Below are positions 1-55,296 of a DNA stretch of 64,000 nt, one piece after another (position 1 is the first letter of the stretch; each line of letters begins with the position of its first letter). The DNA lies in the NCBI GenBank assembly GCA_041749335.1, contig JBGTBM010000010.1, forward strand, positions 142,039 to 206,038, read 5' to 3'. This stretch comes from Patescibacteria group bacterium (GTDB taxonomy: Bacteria; Patescibacteriota; JABMPQ01). The notes under the pieces were generated by a model. That model saw only the letters and a program-made list of their open reading frames with translations. It made no database searches and was not told where the DNA came from. A program made the translations under genes and the position numbers.

Positions 1-1
1 A

Positions 2-1510
2 GATTGGGTCGATAAGTTAAAAAATTGCAAGAAAATTTATATCTGTTTTGATAATGATGAAGCTGGTCATAAAGGAGCTATGCGAGTAGCAGATATGATA
101 TATGAAAATACTGATTGTGAAACATTTAAAATTGATTTACCGGAAGAAGTCGGAGATGGAGGGGATATTACTGATTATTTAACAAAACTTAATGGCAATA
201 TTGAAGACTTATTTAGTAAATATTCAAGGCCTTATCCCGAAAGAATTGATACATCACAATTTAAACCTATTGTATTAAGCGATATTGTTAAGACGCTAGG
301 ATTAACGATTAAAAAAGATGAAACAAATAAAATCATAACTTTCCTATGCGAATTATCTGCATATACTGAAAGTTCCCAGTTTAATATTAGTTTTAACGCC
401 CCCTCCTCTACCGGCAAGTCTTATATACCTACAGAAATTGCACGCTTGTTCCCGGAAAAAGATATTGTCGAAATCGGATATTGTTCTCCTACAGCTTTTT
501 TCCATGATGTTGGAGAATATGATGAGGAAAGAAAAGGATATATTGTTGACCTGTCTAGAAAAATCCTTATCTTCTTAGACCAACCACACACCCAACTTCT
601 GGAAAGGCTAAGGCCTCTTTTATCGCATGATAAGAAAGAAATAAATATTAAAATAACCGATAAGAGCCAGAAATTTGGACTAAAGACAAAAAACGTTCTA
701 CTGAGAGGCTACCCTTCTGTTATTTTTTGTACAGCTGGACTAAGGATAGATGAACAAGAAGCAACACGATTTCTACTTTTAAGCCCCGAAACAAAACAGG
801 AAAAACTTAGAGAAGCAATACAAGAGAAAATTAAGAAAGAATCCGATTCCGCTGCATACAAGGAAGCCCTAAATAACAATCCTGAACGCAAATTATTACG
901 GAACAGAATAATGGCAATAAAGCAGGCAAAGATTAAGGAAATCAAAATCGCCTCCCCCGATATAATCGAGAAAAAAGTCTTAGATAATAAAATGTTGAAA
1001 CCTAGACACGCAAGAGATGTTGGTCGTCTCATATCGCTAATAAAAGCAAATGCTTTATTGAATTTATGGTTTAGGAAAAAGGAAGGATCAACAATTACTG
1101 CCAGTGATGATGATATTGAAAAAGCTTTCAAAATATGGGATTCAATATCAGAAAGTCAAGAATTGAATTTACCGCCATATATTTATAACCTTTACCACGA
1201 AGTTATTATGCCGGCCTGGAAAGAAAAAAACGAAGGACGATCGGAGGGATTTGAAGAAATTACAGGTGAGTTGGGATTATCACGACAAGATATTGTTCAA
1301 ATGCATTACAAAATTCACGGCAGATTTATAGCAGACTGGCAACTTAGACAGCATATAATCCCAATGCTAGAAACAGCGGGATTAATAATGCAAGAGCGAG
1401 ACCCAAGTGATAAACGTAAAATATTAATATATCCTACTCCCCTGTTAAACTCTGCAAATAAGAAAAACAATAGTGAGTCGAGTAGTGGGGTAAATAATTT
1501 AAAAATATGA
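2..1510 (+). CDS. Phage/plasmid-type DNA primase-helicase, 5'-partial (TOPRIM domain plus P-loop NTPase).
   Basis: The ORF is open from base 2 (DWVDKLKNCKKIYICFDNDEAGHKGAMRVADMI is a TOPRIM DxD/E-type motif). Walker A-like NAPSSTGKSY and Walker B-like ILIFLDQ follow. The ORF track starts at the first Met (80), but the frame is open to the window edge. Confidence 0.6.
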   Translation, partial: DWVDKLKNCKKIYICFDNDEAGHKGAMRVADMIYENTDCETFKIDLPEEVGDGGDITDYLTKLNGNIEDLFSKYSRPYPERIDTSQFKPIVLSDIVKTLGLTIKKDETNKIITFLCELSAYTESSQFNISFNAPSSTGKSYIPTEIARLFPEKDIVEIGYCSPTAFFHDVGEYDEERKGYIVDLSRKILIFLDQPHTQLLERLRPLLSHDKKEINIKITDKSQKFGLKTKNVLLRGYPSVIFCTAGLRIDEQEATRFLLLSPETKQEKLREAIQEKIKKESDSAAYKEALNNNPERKLLRNRIMAIKQAKIKEIKIASPDIIEKKVLDNKMLKPRHARDVGRLISLIKANALLNLWFRKKEGSTITASDDDIEKAFKIWDSISESQELNLPPYIYNLYHEVIMPAWKEKNEGRSEGFEEITGELGLSRQDIVQMHYKIHGRFIADWQLRQHIIPMLETAGLIMQERDPSDKRKILIYPTPLLNSANKKNNSESSSGVNNLKI

Positions 1511-1602
1511 CATCCAGTTGCAATACTTTATTTAAGGATTTAGCCAATAAAATCAACAATTTTACGTCTTATCTCTATTAATTTCGGTATTTTAAGAAAA
1601 AT

Positions 1603-2190
1603 ATGGCAAAACCATTAGCAGAACAATCCAATAGTATAAGTATATTTATGCTCAAAAAGTGGGGCTACATAAACTCAAAAGGCGGCCAATCTTGCGGAGT
1701 TTTAACATGGACTTCGTTCGGATATGAAAATAGTATTAATTTTAAGATTATTACTACAAGTAAAGATGAACCAGATGATTGCTATATAAAAATATCTTAT
1801 TCATATTCAGATATTTATAGCGATGATAAAGAATCTCTTGATTATAAAATAGAATTAACCACCACGGAGTGCAATTATGGAGGAACAAGATATTGGTTTA
1901 GATGTCCTTTAATAAGAAATGGTCATGCATGTAATAAACGAGTAGGTGTTTTGTATCAGGCGGGTAAATATTTTGGATGCAGATATTGTGCGGATATTTC
2001 GTATAAATCACAAAGACAAGGAGGTAATTATCGTGAAAGCTCAATAACAATTTATGATATTGAAAATTTTGAAAATGAAATAACAAAATATTATTATAAA
2101 GGAAAGCCAACCAAGAAGCATCTTCGTCTAAAAAAAATGCGAGATAGATTTGAGAAAGATTTTTATATTTCTGTTAGCTTACTTATATAG
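1603..2190 (+). CDS. Hypothetical Cys-rich (Zn-ribbon-like) protein inside the mobile element.
   Basis: CxxC-type pairs (CNYGG..RCP, GCRYCAD). Located between the primase and the recombinase. Confidence 0.4.
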   Translation: MAKPLAEQSNSISIFMLKKWGYINSKGGQSCGVLTWTSFGYENSINFKIITTSKDEPDDCYIKISYSYSDIYSDDKESLDYKIELTTTECNYGGTRYWFRCPLIRNGHACNKRVGVLYQAGKYFGCRYCADISYKSQRQGGNYRESSITIYDIENFENEITKYYYKGKPTKKHLRLKKMRDRFEKDFYISVSLLI

Positions 2191-2367: not shown

Positions 2368-3978
2368 ATGAATGAAGACAAACCTAAAATTAAATACTTT
2401 CTTTATACTCGCAAATCCTCAGAGGCTGAAGATAAACAAGTGGCTTCAATTGATTCTCAAATATCAGAATTAAGAAAAAAAGCTAAGCAAGTAAATATTA
2501 AGATCGTAAAGATATTTAAAGAATCTATGTCAGCTAAAGCTCCTGGTCGCCCCGTTTTTAACGAAATGTTAAGCAAAATTCAAAATGGCGAAGCTGACGG
2601 AATTTTGTGCTGGAAACTTGATAGGCTTGCCAGAAACTCAGTAGATGGAGGTCAAATTATATATTTACTGCAAAGTAATATTATTAAAAATATACAAGCA
2701 TATAGTCATAGCTATTATCCTAATGATAATGTTGTCATGATGTATGTTGAGTTCGGTGTAGCAAATCAATTTGTTAAAGATTTAAGCCAAAATGTAAAAA
2801 GAGGCTTTAATTCAAAAGCTCAAAGAGGATGGTTTCCTAACCGATTAACCCTGGGATATATGCACAATCCTAAAGGCTATGAAGATGGTAAGGAAATAAT
2901 CATTGATCCGGATAGCTTTAATGGTTTAAGAGAAGTATTTGATTTAGTTCTCACAGGTAATTATACGGTACCAGAAATATACAAAATTGCTATTAACGAG
3001 CTTTGTCTTAGAAATAAGAAGGGCAAGAAATTTTCACTAAGCACCTTATATAGAATATTAACTGATACATTTTATTATGGAGAATTTGAATATCCAAAGG
3101 GTAGTAGTGATTGGTTTACGGGTAAACACCATCAAATGATAACAGAAGAAGAATATGACAAGATTCAAATCATTTTAGGTAGAAAGGGCAAACCTCGCCC
3201 CAAGACTCATAAATTCGCCTATACAGGCCTTATACGCTGTGGTGAGTGCGGATGCAGTATAACCGCAGAAGATAAAATTAAAAAACAAATAAATGGTAAT
3301 ATACATAGATACACATACTATCACTGCACAAAACGTAAAAAAATACCCTGCTCCCAAAAAAATATAAGAGTTGAAAATTTAGAGAAGCAAATTAAAAATG
3401 TATTAGAAAAAATTGAAATTCCTAACAAGTTTTATCAGTGGGCATTAGATGAATTGCGGGAACGAAATAAAAAAGAATCCATAAATAGAGAAGAATTATT
3501 GTCTACGCAACAAAGACAATACAACAATTGTATCCAGAAAGTAGATAGATTGATTGATATGAGAACTAATGGAGAGCTTACAGAAGAAGAGTTTAAAAAT
3601 AAAAAGAGGGAATTAATAAAAGAAAAGGATAATTTCCAGAAACTTCTCAAAGACACAGACAACCGAGTAGACGACTGGTTAGACAAAGCAGAAGAAATGT
3701 TTAAATTTGCAGAAACTGCTAAATACAGATTTGAAAATGGCACCCTTGAAGATAGAAAGAATGTGCTTTCTATACTAGGTTCGAACCTCTTCCTAAAAAA
3801 CAATATTTTAAGTATACAAGTACAAAAACCCCTATTACTCATTCAAAAAGCCTCTTCTGAGATAAAAGCTTTTTCCAGAATGTTAGAACCTCAAACAATT
3901 GGCTTAAACAAAAGAAAAAAGAGAGCTTCTCGCTCTCAATTTCCTACACTATGGGACGTACAAGAATCGAACTTGTGA
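2368..3978 (+). CDS. Large serine recombinase/integrase (resolvase catalytic domain + recombinase domain + Zn ribbon + coiled coil).
   Basis: N-terminal YTRKSS..SIDSQ..DRLARN resolvase motifs. Zn ribbon CGECGCS..YYHCTKRK. Length 536 aa. Last 27 nt overlap tRNA-Lys. Confidence 0.85.
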   Translation: MNEDKPKIKYFLYTRKSSEAEDKQVASIDSQISELRKKAKQVNIKIVKIFKESMSAKAPGRPVFNEMLSKIQNGEADGILCWKLDRLARNSVDGGQIIYLLQSNIIKNIQAYSHSYYPNDNVVMMYVEFGVANQFVKDLSQNVKRGFNSKAQRGWFPNRLTLGYMHNPKGYEDGKEIIIDPDSFNGLREVFDLVLTGNYTVPEIYKIAINELCLRNKKGKKFSLSTLYRILTDTFYYGEFEYPKGSSDWFTGKHHQMITEEEYDKIQIILGRKGKPRPKTHKFAYTGLIRCGECGCSITAEDKIKKQINGNIHRYTYYHCTKRKKIPCSQKNIRVENLEKQIKNVLEKIEIPNKFYQWALDELRERNKKESINREELLSTQQRQYNNCIQKVDRLIDMRTNGELTEEEFKNKKRELIKEKDNFQKLLKDTDNRVDDWLDKAEEMFKFAETAKYRFENGTLEDRKNVLSILGSNLFLKNNILSIQVQKPLLLIQKASSEIKAFSRMLEPQTIGLNKRKKRASRSQFPTLWDVQESNL

Positions 3979-4024
3979 CCTTCTGCTTAAAAGGCAGCTG
4001 CTCTACCTGCTGAGCTAACGTCCC
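3952..4024 (-). tRNA. tRNA-Lys (anticodon UUU).
   Basis: Cloverleaf folded manually: GGGACGT/ACGTCCC acceptor, anticodon loop CUUUUAA, T-loop TTCGATT. 73 nt, no encoded CCA. Confidence 0.85.
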
Positions 4025-4048
4025 ATATAAATTAAATTATTAATGATT

Positions 4049-4170
4049 CTACGCTGTGACCTTTCCCGCCAAGCGGGACTGCTCCCCGCCTCGCGTCGAC
4101 GAGCGACTGCGAGTCGAGGCGGGTACCTGCTGCCTGCCCGCCGTAGGAGGGGAGCTAACGTCCCATAATA
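4049..4170. repeat. GC-rich (~70%) hairpin-dense element of ~105 bp flanked by a 16-17-nt direct repeat of the tRNA-Lys 5' end (GAGCTAACGTCCCATA at ~4010-4027 and 4153-4168).
   Basis: Sharp compositional island in AT-rich DNA. Hairpins CCCGC-caa-GCGGG and CCCCGCCTCG..CGAGGCGGG. The 5' part of the tRNA is duplicated (GGGACGTTAGCTC). Confidence 0.5.
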
Positions 4171-4204
4171 AAACCAACGTCATCCTGATCCCGCAAAGTG
4201 GGAG

Positions 4205-4240
4205 AAGGATCTCATTGCAAATGCAAAAAATCCTTTTTCT
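4205..4240 (+). terminator. Possible intrinsic terminator (AAGGAT-loop-ATCCTT + TTTTT) downstream of the GC-rich element on the + strand.
   Basis: 6-bp stem with a long loop, then a T-run. Weak. Confidence 0.25.
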
Positions 4241-4317
4241 CAGTAAAACCGAGAAGTCAGCATGACAATATATATATAAAATTATTCTATTAAACACCAG
4301 AAGTCAATATAAATTTA

Positions 4318-4836
4318 TCATGACTCCTTCTTTTTTATTAATACCATGGCTAAAATCGGCACCAACATCCACGCAAGTTTGGAAACATTGGTGGTAAATA
4401 ATTTTTTGGTAATTGGAGCAAATGATGAGATCGTTTCAGCCGGAAGAAAAGATAAAATTATGCTTATCAATAACCCTACCAGTAAAAAACTGAATAATAA
4501 AACTACCAATGGATTTATTTTTCCGGAAAAGCTTGATAAGGCTCCCATGCGGGAAAACAATACAAAAAGTATTACTACACAAAAAATAAAAACTACCACT
4601 TTAAGCGCCGATACGGAACCCAGATGAAATTTTGAGGAAGTTTCGTCTGTAATAAAAGGCAAAGTAGATGTAATAGCCAGTCCGATATATTGGCTCAGCA
4701 GAACGAATAATACTCTGGCTCTTCCCAAGGTAAAGGCGAAAAGGATCCCAACCGCAGTAAAAAAAATTATTATAAAAAGATCCCAAGTTGGAACCGTCCA
4801 ATTTATGCTAGAAATTAAGTTACCGATATACTGCAT
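4318..4836 (-). CDS. Hypothetical integral membrane protein (about 5 TM helices).
   Basis: Hydrophobic segments throughout. No recognisable motif. Confidence 0.5.
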   Translation of the reverse strand: MQYIGNLISSINWTVPTWDLFIIIFFTAVGILFAFTLGRARVLFVLLSQYIGLAITSTLPFITDETSSKFHLGSVSALKVVVFIFCVVILFVLFSRMGALSSFSGKINPLVVLLFSFLLVGLLISIILSFLPAETISSFAPITKKLFTTNVSKLAWMLVPILAMVLIKKKES

Positions 4837-53223: not shown

Positions 53224-53303
53224 TGGAAGGTGCTAGGCGAGATATTCGGATGAATAGTTGACTTCCTCAGAATGAGTTGGTCGGAAAGATCAAATCTAGT
53301 GCG

Positions 53304-54743
53304 CTAGCAGTTGTAGCGCCGCTTGCTGTCGGCGACCTCGCCGAAGGTAGCGATGGCTGCCTTGCGACCATTGCCATCGGCGTAGACCTGGACGTCCTTC
53401 GAGTCGGCATGTCCGAAGCTGAAGCTGTTGCGGGCCTTGAAACCGCGGCCCCGCTGGTTCTGGCTTTTCTTCCCGCCGTTGGTGTTTCCGGACTCGTAGC
53501 GCTCGGCATCCCGCTCGTACTTCTTGGCCACTGCCTTCTCGACAGCGACCGAGAGCGGAGTCGTCCAGGCGTCTCGCTCGTCCTTGCGCGGGACTCCCCG
53601 AAGGATGTTCCCGCAGCGGCTGCAGAGAACCACCGGCTTGTTCTTCACCACCGGCTTCCCCTTGTCGTCGAGAACGACCTGCCCCTTGAGGTTGCCCTGC
53701 TTGTGCACGATCCGCATGGGCTGCCAGGAGATCCACATCTTGGGAAGTGGAATGTCCTCGCCGGCGCGGTTGATGAGAATGACCTTGTCATCCTCGTCTC
53801 GAGCCACGTCAGCCATCGTCCCCCGCTCGGAACAGTGGGGATTGGAGCAGACGTGGACATCCTTGGCATCGACCTTTGGCAGGAAGACGGGCGGACAGTT
53901 GTTCTCGTCCAGCAGGCCGTCGAACAGGTCGCGGGCCCACTGGCGCGAGAGATCGTTCGCGCTCGGTGTTCTCTGATCTTCCTCCTTCTGGTCGCCGGAC
54001 TCCACGTCCATACCGACCATGAAGGCGTCGGCCTGAGACAGAAGCTTCTGCTCGCGCAGGTGCTCCTGCTCCTCACGCCGGAGCCTCTGCTCCTCGGCCT
54101 CCTGAGACATCTTCTGGATCTTCGCTTCCGCCTCCTGCTGCCTGTGCGCCTCTTCGTCCTTGCGCTGCTTGTACTTGCGCTGGGCGTAGGAGAAATCGAG
54201 GAAGATGTCGTCGCGGCCGAAGAATCGCATGAGCTGCGAACGACAGTCGGGGCAGACCGGGAACGGTCCACCGCCATCCTTGAGAGTCAGCAGGCGGGAC
54301 TGGAAGGCCTTCGCGAGAGCGAACTGCTTCTCCTCGAGAGGAGAGCGTTTTCCGCGCGTGATGCGAGTGACCTCCGCCATCTTGGACGGATTCACCGTCT
54401 TCACGCACTCCGGAGTTCCTTCGCTTCCCATCACCATCTCCTTCCCGCAGTCGGGACGAGCGGCGCAGATCACGGTCTTCTCGGGGTCGTAGTCGAGCTG
54501 GCGTTCGGCCGGCACGACCTCGGCCTTGGCTAGGCGCCTCTCTTCGTTTTTCTTGGCCTTGGCGGCGGCTTGAACGCGACGCCTGCAGTGGGAACAGAAG
54601 CCATCGGGATCGTTGTCGTTCCAGTAGTTCTTGCAGGGGTTGCCCCCTTTCGTCACTCCCGGACACATCTTGCCATCGGAACGCTTTGGTGACATCTCAC
54701 ACCTCTTTTTACTTCTTGGTGTTGTGGTTTTATGAACAGACAT
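53304..54743 (-). CDS. Compositionally foreign (~65% GC) gene encoding a Lys/Arg/Glu-rich multi-Zn-ribbon coiled-coil protein of unknown function. Likely start at Met17 (54695), which has the SD AAAGAGGTG.
   Basis: The GC jump is confined to 53230-54700. CxxC pairs (CSHC, CPDC, CSNPHC, CSRC). Long uninterrupted frame, with alternative-frame ORFs typical of high-GC coding DNA. Own terminator downstream. Confidence 0.6.
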   Translation of the reverse strand: MSVHKTTTPRSKKRCEMSPKRSDGKMCPGVTKGGNPCKNYWNDNDPDGFCSHCRRRVQAAAKAKKNEERRLAKAEVVPAERQLDYDPEKTVICAARPDCGKEMVMGSEGTPECVKTVNPSKMAEVTRITRGKRSPLEEKQFALAKAFQSRLLTLKDGGGPFPVCPDCRSQLMRFFGRDDIFLDFSYAQRKYKQRKDEEAHRQQEAEAKIQKMSQEAEEQRLRREEQEHLREQKLLSQADAFMVGMDVESGDQKEEDQRTPSANDLSRQWARDLFDGLLDENNCPPVFLPKVDAKDVHVCSNPHCSERGTMADVARDEDDKVILINRAGEDIPLPKMWISWQPMRIVHKQGNLKGQVVLDDKGKPVVKNKPVVLCSRCGNILRGVPRKDERDAWTTPLSVAVEKAVAKKYERDAERYESGNTNGGKKSQNQRGRGFKARNSFSFGHADSKDVQVYADGNGRKAAIATFGEVADSKRRYNC

Positions 54744-55296
54744 TTCTGTCTGCCCACATTGTCTTTTCCGAATACCTATTATTAATGTACTTTCCCCTTA
54801 TATGCAAACAAGAAGAACCTTTTTTGGGCACTAAGCCCTCACCTCCATAAGGAAGGTCTAAGTAAGGAGGTAACTTAGACAAGGTTCTTCATATCTGAAT
54901 ATAATTTCCAAGTTTTAACTTAAGATTTTGAGAAATTATATAATCATTATTGAAAAGGTTCGTTTTTAACGCCATCTCTTTTCAGGCATCAATATTTTTT
55001 ACTATCTCAATCTTTATTGCACAAGTTTAACATATTATAATATTTATGTCAAGGCCTTTTGACATCTTTTGTCATTTTATTATCTTTTGTTTCATCTATA
55101 TTGTATTATTTTTTATAAATTATGTTTTACAATACCAACATATATTTATTAATAATGTTTTAGGCGCAGACATTTGGCGAGTTAAGTAATAGTGTTTTAT
55201 TTCTGAGTTATTGGCAGGTTAAGAACCTGCCCTACTTAAATATCTTTAAATTACATAGTTAACTGGGACTTAGTATATATATTTATTCATAAAGCC

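Follow-up and report, generated by a model that had tools for sequence, protein, structure and literature searches.

The described systems nearest to the locus reported here are the phage nuclease SegB, the scars left by integration into transfer RNA (tRNA) genes, and the tRNA introns of Patescibacteria. SegB of phages T4/T6 is a free-standing GIY-YIG homing endonuclease that recognises the DNA of the tRNA T-loop (PMC2330249); its homologues are found alongside tRNA genes and cause the tRNA-segB segment to be amplified in tandem (PMC13096335). The group I introns of patescibacterial tRNA genes are 184-894 nucleotides (nt) long, self-splicing, and located in the anticodon loop of an otherwise complete tRNA (10.1101/2025.07.03.662931). 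We compared with these systems a GC-rich, hairpin-bearing block next to a functional tRNA-Lys(UUU) gene in a 64,000-nt (64-kb) stretch of a Patescibacteria group bacterium genome (contig JBGTBM010000010.1), referred to below as the window; all positions are those of this stretch unless a locus is named. The block derives from the adjacent tRNA-Lys(UUU), of which it copies the 5' two-thirds in truncated and rearranged form and in the same orientation. No description of such a hairpin-bearing 5' pseudo-tRNA arrangement was found in the literature searched.

The likeness to SegB consists in a GIY-YIG nuclease gene placed among tRNA genes, as seen at loci related to ours; SegB spreads with flanking tRNA sequence. 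Two identical 311-nt units at one of these loci, L072, resemble the tandem amplification of tRNA plus nuclease gene by SegB. The differences are as follows: the proteins in question, putative nucleases of about 80-104 amino acids (aa), comprise the catalytic domain only; they are encoded in genomes of cellular Patescibacteria and not of phages; what is repeated is a 5' portion of the tRNA, truncated and with arms replaced by GC hairpins; and the window itself is devoid of a nuclease gene.

With the scars of genomic islands and tycheposons, the locus shares a tRNA hotspot, partial copies beside a full tRNA, and remnants of degraded elements (10.1101/2020.12.28.424599). An element with a large serine recombinase is truly integrated at the window tRNA-Lys, as in scars of integrative elements. 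The classical scar, however, is a 3' fragment on the element side, whereas here the 5' part is found on the opposite side; the fragment is also present in genomes without the recombinase and missing from one that has it. The patescibacterial introns agree with our locus in phylum, in the presence of structured inserts in tRNA genes, and in the tRNA halves flanking them (10.1101/2025.07.03.662931). In contrast to the introns, a complete, uninterrupted tRNA follows here, the inserts measure 15-39 nt, and no 3' exon comes after the pseudo-copy; Rfam scans of the window and ten related loci gave no Intron_gpI match.

A GC-rich, imperfect palindrome in intergenic DNA of an AT-rich genome also recalls repetitive extragenic palindromes (REP), bacterial interspersed mosaic elements (BIME), and miniature inverted-repeat transposable elements (MITEs). 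REP and BIME palindromes have a conserved GTAG-type head. The hairpin described here differs in that it has no GTAG-type head, is single-copy in 64 kb, and always lies inside a pseudo-tRNA. Unlike in MITEs, no terminal inverted repeats surround the repeat-bracketed block.

Structure of the pseudo-tRNA copy

The block and its surroundings comprise the following features, listed in the direction of the tRNA (minus) strand:

4302-4307, minus strand: TTGACT, a -35-like motif directly after the stop of a conserved 172-aa gene, promoter-like by sequence
4182-4210, minus strand: apparent older leader hairpin ATCCT-TC-TCCCAC-TTT-GCGGGA-TC-AGGAT, like a more degenerate mini-hairpin unit
4152-4167, minus strand: upstream arm of a 16-nt repeat, tRNA nt 1-13 (GGGACGTTAGCTC) and 3 nt of 5' flank
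4133-4151, minus strand: 19-20-nt GC-rich insertion CCCTCCTACGGCGGGCAGG, after tRNA nt 13
4124-4132, minus strand: CAGCAGGTA, D-loop copy (tRNA nt 13-21), 9-nt exact match to 4004-4012
4085-4123, no strand assigned: 39-nt GC hairpin CCCGCC...GGCGGG, between tRNA positions 21 and 22 (D-loop/D-stem junction)
4079-4084, minus strand: GAGCAG, copy of the 3' strand of the D-stem (tRNA nt 22-27), colinear with the tRNA
4064-4078, minus strand: apparent mini-hairpin TCCCGC-TTG-GCGGGA in place of the anticodon arm
4054-4063, minus strand: AAGGTCACAG, copied from the variable loop plus the 5' strand of the T-stem and marking the end of tRNA similarity; 9-nt exact match to 3974-3982
4025-4053, minus strand: 29-nt AT-rich spacer CGTAGAATCATTAATAATTTAATTTATAT between pseudo-copy and tRNA, identical in both L140 units
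3952-4024, minus strand: functional tRNA-Lys(UUU), 73 nt, no encoded CCA (ARAGORN; Rfam tRNA, 72.1 bits)

Reading from 4164 to 4054, four blocks are colinear and identical with the tRNA, namely nt 1-13, 13-21, 22-27, and 42-51. This pseudo-copy is situated between the promoter-like TTGACT and the functional tRNA, and its arms are interrupted or replaced by GC-rich hairpins. It has neither a T-arm nor a 3' acceptor strand and was not called as a tRNA by ARAGORN or by Rfam, even at E <= 10. In the predicted fold of the window unit, the 5' GGGAC pairs with GUCCC. The mini-hairpin that stands in for the anticodon arm has counterparts in L140 (the same, with a TTA loop) and in L072 (an analogous TCCGCC-GTG-GCGGA). 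The segment AAGGTCACAG reads CACAG, like the tRNA of relatives, whereas the window tRNA has CACAAG.

The original prediction for this region described a GC-rich hairpin element inserted at the 5' side of the tRNA and bracketed by a target-like duplication of 16-17 nt. Its primary observations were reproduced. The GC content of 4050-4149 is 0.70, far above the 0.377 of the whole window. Both hairpins are present in the sequence: CCCGC-CAA-GCGGG of the plus strand at 4065-4077, and the 39-nt hairpin CCCGCCTCG...CGAGGCGGG at 4085-4123, which has a folding energy of -21.9 kcal/mol (z = -2.7) and is the sole perfect GC-rich stem of at least 8 bp among the hairpins of the 64-kb window. The 16-nt direct repeat GAGCTAACGTCCCATA is exact (4012-4027 and 4152-4167; BLAST against the window, E = 0.001-0.002) and comprises nt 1-13 of the tRNA with 3 nt of its 5' flank. 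The copied GGTCACA is part of TGTGACCTT, which occurs at 3974-3982 and again at 4055-4063.

The interpretation of these observations had to be changed. Derivation of the block from the 5' part of the tRNA is sustained, but a discrete element beside the functional tRNA is not; the GC insertions lie inside an older pseudo-tRNA copy, in its D-loop region, and not at the 5' side of the functional gene. The repeat is not a target-like duplication either, being the first of the four colinear tRNA blocks (GGGACGTTAGCTC, CAGCAGGTA, GAGCAG, and AAGGTCACA), and a duplication of fixed length is contradicted by the repeated 5' segment, which is 16 nt long in the window and 21-24 nt in relatives. A plus-strand terminator suggested at 4205-4240 was not returned by the consensus scan, and the AAGGAT...ATCCTT stem with T-run visible there by eye is not kept in L142. 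With the terminator scan empty in this region, the idea of a small RNA transcribed from the plus strand found no support.

The block also lacks recognisable relatives among known RNAs and mobile sequences. Rfam covariance models, applied to 3900-4350 at the gathering threshold and at E <= 10, returned only the tRNA, with all else at chance level, and thus no family for the block. The core is a single copy in the 64-kb window, which speaks against the small element proposed earlier, and no copy was found in 50,697 phage records, in IMG/VR, or in the other 143 loci gathered. In a Joint Genome Institute (JGI) metagenome, the one match to the 24-mer of the tRNA 5' end was an unrelated tRNA cluster (L141). 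The two open reading frames (ORFs) spanning the block (4049-4297, minus strand; 4056-4265, plus strand) were rejected as genes, having no Pfam match. Readings of the hairpins as a split tRNA, an archaeal-type intron, a terminator, or a riboswitch were also discarded: no 3' half, U-tract, or family match was present. The block is identical in the Logan assembly of run SRR28170473, the reads of which are possibly the same as the source of the window. It is not an assembly artefact, because homologous versions come from different samples.

Either TTGAC(T/C) or TTGATT occupies the position of the 4302-4307 motif in all six sister genomes. This conserved promoter-like motif and the polarity of the tRNA point to a putative minus-strand transcription of the leader. 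The leader also contains, just after the 172-aa gene (4244-4306, minus strand), two copies of TGACTTCT(G/C)G(T/G)(G/T)TTTA spaced 47 nt apart. The upstream copy includes the conserved TTGACT, and TATATTGTCATGCTGA, located between the copies, is found in L142 as well.

Variation of the locus among sister genomes

Sister genomes were reached via DnaJ and the conserved 172-aa neighbour and display the same synteny, hrcA-grpE-hsp20-dnaK-dnaJ-orf172-tRNA-Lys. Comparison of these orthologous tRNA-Lys loci, which the original prediction had called for, revealed variants of the pseudo-copy at the same position in four of five sister genomes (L138, L140, L142, and L143). The fifth, L145, has no pseudo-copy; its tRNA begins 68 nt after the 172-aa gene, and the same recombinase tail is present downstream. 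The more distant L144 and L146 have neither pseudo-copy nor recombinase. The pseudo-copy arrangement is heritable and variable within this small clade of Patescibacteria.

The variants differ in architecture. L138 contains nt 1-21 of the tRNA, a 38-nt hairpin at the same site between nt 21 and 22, nt 22-34, a different spacer, and then the tRNA. In L140, the tRNA is preceded by two identical 82-nt units, each composed of nt 1-24, the mini-hairpin, AAGGTCACAG, and the same 29-nt spacer. The large hairpin is missing from this orthologous unit, which confirms the GC-rich hairpin DNA of the window as an insertion. The unit of L143 is degenerate; after nt 13, the same position as that of the 19-nt GC insertion in the window, it has an insertion of some 100 nt of AT-rich DNA (within 1125-1270 of that locus), bounded by the inverted repeat AGTACAAAC ... 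GTTTGTAC. At the corresponding position of L140, L138, and L142, the 19-nt insertion is missing.

L142 has an L138-type copy with a 39-nt hairpin, which shares site, six-nt ends, and length with that of the window. The interior of this hairpin is unrelated to the one in the window (17/39 identical), yet it still folds (-26.2 kcal/mol). In addition, an ORF of the GIY-YIG family (Pfam, 3e-15) is located between an older pseudo 5' end and the L138-type copy. This ORF was called from 2605, and the frame of its core reads the pseudo 5' end as W-N-V-I. A start at the ATG made by the flank and the first tRNA base was considered and rejected, since it is out of frame.

The leaders of the window and L142 are colinear over nine anchors, with the GIY-YIG ORF present in L142 only, between the pseudo 5' end and the block formed by CAGCAGGTA and the hairpin. 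The order of anchors is TATATTGACT, TATATTGTCATGCTGA, GAGATCCTTC, TCAGGATGAC, pseudo 5' end, (ORF in L142), TCCTACGG, CAGCAGGTACCCGCC, GGCGGGGAGCAG, and tRNA. Of these, GAGATCCTTC and TCAGGATGAC flank the older leader hairpin at 4182-4210 and are colinear with L142 2655-2682, while GGCGGGGAGCAG lies in the GAGCAG region. The anchor TCCTACGG is common to the 19-nt insertion of the window and to the GC palindromes after the L142 ORF; it is colinear, and weak on its own (E = 3).

Coding DNA of the window is 71-76% (about 73%) identical to that of the sister genomes, and ordinary intergenic DNA cannot be aligned. By comparison, the large hairpin of the window is 96% identical to that of L138 (51/53 with flanks), and mini-hairpin, spacer, and tRNA together are 98% identical to those of L140 (127/130). 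The leader of the window is thus made of an L138-like half and an L140-like half. This mosaic near-identity indicates that leader segments are under selection or, alternatively, have been exchanged by lateral spread or gene conversion. The large hairpin is represented by only three sequences, two of them nearly identical, which is too few for an analysis of covariation.

Recurrence at other tRNA genes and association with GIY-YIG genes

The loci examined were gathered by a recombinase search and a synteny search, so that the frequencies given below are not unbiased. Copies of tRNA ends (14 nt, at most one mismatch, within 450 nt) were surveyed for the 108 tRNAs in the gathered sequences. Copies of the 5' end were located upstream of six tRNAs and downstream of none; copies of the 3' end were located downstream of three and upstream of none.

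The same architecture recurs at other tRNAs of other Patescibacteria, namely tRNA-Lys(CUU), tRNA-Arg, and tRNA-Asn. The upstream copy at tRNA-Arg(UCU) of L044 carries two GC hairpins within its D-loop. At tRNA-Asn of L012 and L014, a 23-nt repeat is accompanied by a GC-richer insert and a mutated copy of the anticodon arm. The tRNA-Lys(CUU) locus L072 comprises the two identical 311-nt units and, after them, the intact tRNA; each unit consists of tRNA nt 1-23, TCCGCC-GTG-GCGGA, the anticodon loop, and an 81-aa GIY-YIG ORF. GC hairpins and a 3' fragment of the tRNA are present on the downstream side. The tRNA-Lys of L067 has a GC hairpin and a GIY-YIG ORF immediately upstream. The GIY-YIG ORF of L140 ends in a remnant of the tRNA-Lys D-arm, which is followed by a GC hairpin, the tRNA 3' end, and about 85 nt of the DNA that flanks this same tRNA on its 3' side.

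Arrays of this kind show polarity, include tandem units, and have an association with GIY-YIG ORFs. In 1.37 Mb of gathered loci, a small and biased sample, tblastn detected five GIY-YIG copies, all of them at tRNA-Lys genes or fragments. The proteins have about 80-104 aa and consist of the catalytic domain only, with no DNA-binding domain evident.

A mirror-image architecture was observed on the 3' side of some tRNAs, where a GC hairpin block is followed by a copy of the tRNA 3' end (L027, 7580-7830; L072, 8927-9100; L140, 10228-10362). In L027, the recombinase abuts the 3' fragment, and the full tRNA-Arg is located about 150 nt further upstream. Rfam scans of ten related loci revealed only tRNAs and LOOT RNA (RF03000). 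The latter scored well above the gathering threshold about 5 kb upstream of the recombinase gene in L014 (994-1115) and L044 (1481-1600); it was not found in the Rfam scan of the window.

Origin of the pseudo-tRNA array

We tentatively favour the view that the block is an ORF-less relic of a tRNA-associated GIY-YIG cassette, lodged between the TTGAC motif and the tRNA, and would give this origin close to, if still short of, an even chance. In such a process, a small nuclease with the catalytic domain only would break the DNA of the tRNA gene. Repair would then copy the cassette with the adjoining part of the tRNA, regenerating an intact tRNA downstream and leaving the old 5' part upstream, and repetition of this cycle would produce tandem units. 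The ORF would eventually decay or be deleted; in the window, two pseudo-copies would thereby have been fused, with the 19-nt GC insertion possibly being a remnant of the 3' flank of the deleted cassette. Deletion of the ORF in the lineage of the window would be the simplest history. As parts of the cassette, the GC hairpins might keep the leftover tRNA half from acting as a tRNA or from pairing with the real one. Alternatively, they might destroy or constitute the DNA site of the nuclease, or confer immunity against re-cutting. The mosaic near-identity of the leader across diverged genomes suggests that its segments may have spread laterally or by gene conversion.

Several observations weigh against a cassette origin. 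No GIY-YIG gene or recognisable remnant was detected by tblastn anywhere in the window, which is therefore at most a cassette relic, and most of the other pseudo-copies (L138, L140, L143, L014, L044) are ORF-less as well. A single sister genome, together with analogous loci from distant lineages in a biased sample, provides the link to GIY-YIG genes. The ORF in L142 has no in-frame ATG of its own near the GIY-YIG core and may be decaying, while site-specific homing by proteins of about 80 aa with a catalytic domain only is putative. The 8-mer that ties the 19-nt insertion to the cassette flank of L142 is not significant alone. Finally, the tRNA junctions vary (about nt 21, 34, 43, and 51), which would equally fit tandem duplication followed by deletion, and the strong conservation of hairpin and spacer could reflect function rather than mobility.

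This last point leads to the alternative of a functional structured leader: the primary transcript of tRNA-Lys would contain a module, acting in cis as RNA or DNA and maintained by selection, that might serve processing, stability, insulation, or protein binding by a hairpin. The contrast between the 51/53 identity of hairpin and flanks in the window and L138 and the low identity of coding DNA speaks for it. So do the 39 nt of non-anticodon, non-tRNA-like sequence preceding the tRNA, which are the same in the window and L140 (39/39), and the L142 hairpin, which retains site, ends, length, and folding despite its unrelated interior. The position of the array between the conserved TTGAC motif and the tRNA and the GGGAC/GUCCC pairing would also suit a leader. 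Nevertheless, the module is missing from L145 of the same clade and from L144 and L146, and is hence dispensable. Its architecture differs in each genome, with zero, one, or two units, with or without the large hairpin, and with two unrelated spacers; whole units fold unexceptionally (z = -2.0 in the window, -0.95 in L140), Rfam offers no match, and the three hairpin sequences, two of them nearly identical, are too few to reveal covariation. We regard this explanation as rather unlikely. Much the same judgement applies to a plain tandem duplication of tRNA-Lys, in which the upstream copy decayed and the GC hairpins are unrelated secondary insertions, with neither cassette nor function. The two perfectly identical 82-nt units of L140 are typical of recent slippage or unequal exchange and correspond in size to about one tRNA with a short spacer, and the end of tRNA similarity varies among loci. 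Duplication alone, however, leaves unexplained why 70% GC hairpins appear repeatedly at the same D-loop site in genomes of 32-39% GC, why the broken copy is always the upstream one, why GIY-YIG ORFs are found inside such arrays, and why the non-tRNA parts are nearly identical across diverged genomes.

The remaining two explanations invoke mobile elements of other kinds. The block might be a scar of integration or excision of the adjacent, or an earlier, serine recombinase element, either as a remnant of an attachment (att) site or as a miniature cis-mobilisable element with att repeats. The recombinase gene does abut the tRNA, its family is found at the 3' ends of tRNA or transfer-messenger RNA (tmRNA) genes in 49 loci, L012, L014, and L011 combine a recombinase with upstream 5' fragments, and partial tRNAs are classical integration scars (10.1101/2020.12.28.424599). 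Against this, all four combinations of pseudo-copy and recombinase occur: both in the window, the recombinase only in L145, the pseudo-copy only in L138, L140, and L143 (no recombinase within 7 kb), and neither in L144 and L146. This free combination shows the pseudo-copy to be independent of the recombinase element, and causation by a recombinase att scar was rejected after the comparison of L145, L138, and L140. The element genes are, moreover, on the 3' side of the tRNA and the block on its 5' side, and the tRNA breakpoints vary, unlike a fixed crossover. Serine recombinases are not known to leave long direct repeats. An origin as such a scar appears very improbable. Still less credence is due to a small mobile hairpin element of MITE or REP type, inserted beside the tRNA with a target duplication of 16-17 nt. 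The GC hairpin is an insertion relative to L140, the hairpin with the same ends and a different interior at the same site of L142 could indicate a site-specific hairpin family, and L143 has its insertion with an inverted repeat after nt 13. Yet the core is single-copy in 64 kb and absent from the phage and viral collections and from the other 143 loci; the repeat is tRNA sequence continued by colinear tRNA blocks and varies in length between genomes, and no terminal inverted repeats mark the ends of the repeat-bracketed block.

The neighbouring recombinase element and other features of the window

Two further features adjoin the tRNA on its 3' side:

2368-3978, plus strand: gene for a large serine recombinase, belonging to an integrated element (Pfam Resolvase, Recombinase, and Zn_ribbon_recom; PHROG integrase)
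3921-3937, minus strand: terminator-like hairpin and T-run just 3' of the tRNA, within the tail of the recombinase ORF (terminator scan)

The last nine codons of the recombinase are antisense to the 3' part of the tRNA, and its stop codon lies in TGTGACC. A nearly identical terminator-like sequence follows the tRNA of L145. Scanning of GTDB genomes with the recombinase profile yielded 80 loci (L002-L081), mostly from Patescibacteria. In 48 of these, a tRNA (Asn, His, Lys, Gln, Ile, Ala, Met, or Ser) or tmRNA gene is convergent at the 3' end of the recombinase gene, and the recombinase ORF overlaps the 3' end of the RNA gene by at least 10 nt in all 49 cases, the window included. Many of these recombinases have (D/E/G)-S-N as C-terminal residues, with codons supplied by the antisense strand of the T-loop.

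The T-stem of the window tRNA differs from that of relatives (3957-3975 versus 767-841 of L145) by a compensatory pair, ACAAG/CTTGT versus ACAGG/CCTGT. Neither change alters the protein read from the overlapping recombinase frame (CAA/CAG, Gln; TTG/CTG, Leu), and the bases in question appear to have a double role, in a tRNA stem and in a protein tail.

Homologues of the window ORFs 80-1510 and 1603-2190 occur upstream of the recombinase at other loci; this places the element 3' of the tRNA and away from the block. These element genes (window 1-2190) encode proteins of 476 and 195 aa without family matches, and their homologues are found in L006, L045, L074, and L057. The window opens within an ORF bearing, by eye, a Toprim-like DNDEAG motif, and the element may encode a primase. 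No distal fragment of tRNA-Lys was detected in the window, and the far end of the element is therefore outside it. A search of viral contigs for the excised element produced only three weak or partial relatives.

The 172-aa ORF upstream of the leader (4318-4836, minus strand) has no family match, yet it is a real conserved gene, which always follows dnaJ in the clade. A 93-aa ORF on the plus strand (4346-4627), called by one gene caller in its place, is probably spurious.

Apart from the tRNA locus, the window contains a 1.4-kb island of 60-65% GC (53295-54750) in this genome of 38% GC. It is filled by a 479-aa ORF (53304-54743, minus strand) rich in Cys, Lys, and Arg. This ORF has no match in Pfam, PHROG, or NCBIfam, and the island, which is probably foreign DNA, is unrelated in sequence to the 4050-4150 block.

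Implications

As far as the window is concerned, decay of a tRNA copy accounts for most of the finding; the notable part is the recurring architecture of hairpin-bearing 5' pseudo-tRNAs. It is conceivable, although we think it unlikely, that Patescibacteria harbour a previously undescribed class of tRNA-scaffolded selfish cassettes, or else that the hairpin pseudo-tRNA is a functional tRNA-like leader RNA, with the window representing an ORF-less member. In a cassette of this class, GC hairpins whose ends are conserved and whose interiors can be exchanged would take the place of the arms in a 5' tRNA half, and a minimal GIY-YIG nuclease would be an optional addition. Insertion of the cassette into a tRNA gene would regenerate that gene, and the cassette would make use of the tRNA promoter.

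For genome annotation, such blocks matter in that they mimic mobile elements with target duplications and can confuse the prediction of tRNAs and att sites. A functional role of the conserved hairpin would make it a new cis-element in tRNA expression. If, on the other hand, the array originated from a GIY-YIG cassette, this would provide a mechanism for the formation of mosaic tRNA loci in the tiny, streamlined genomes of Patescibacteria. It would also explain why 5' tRNA fragments pile up upstream of tRNA genes, in a mirror image of the classical 3' integration scars, and why minimal GIY-YIG genes persist in these genomes.

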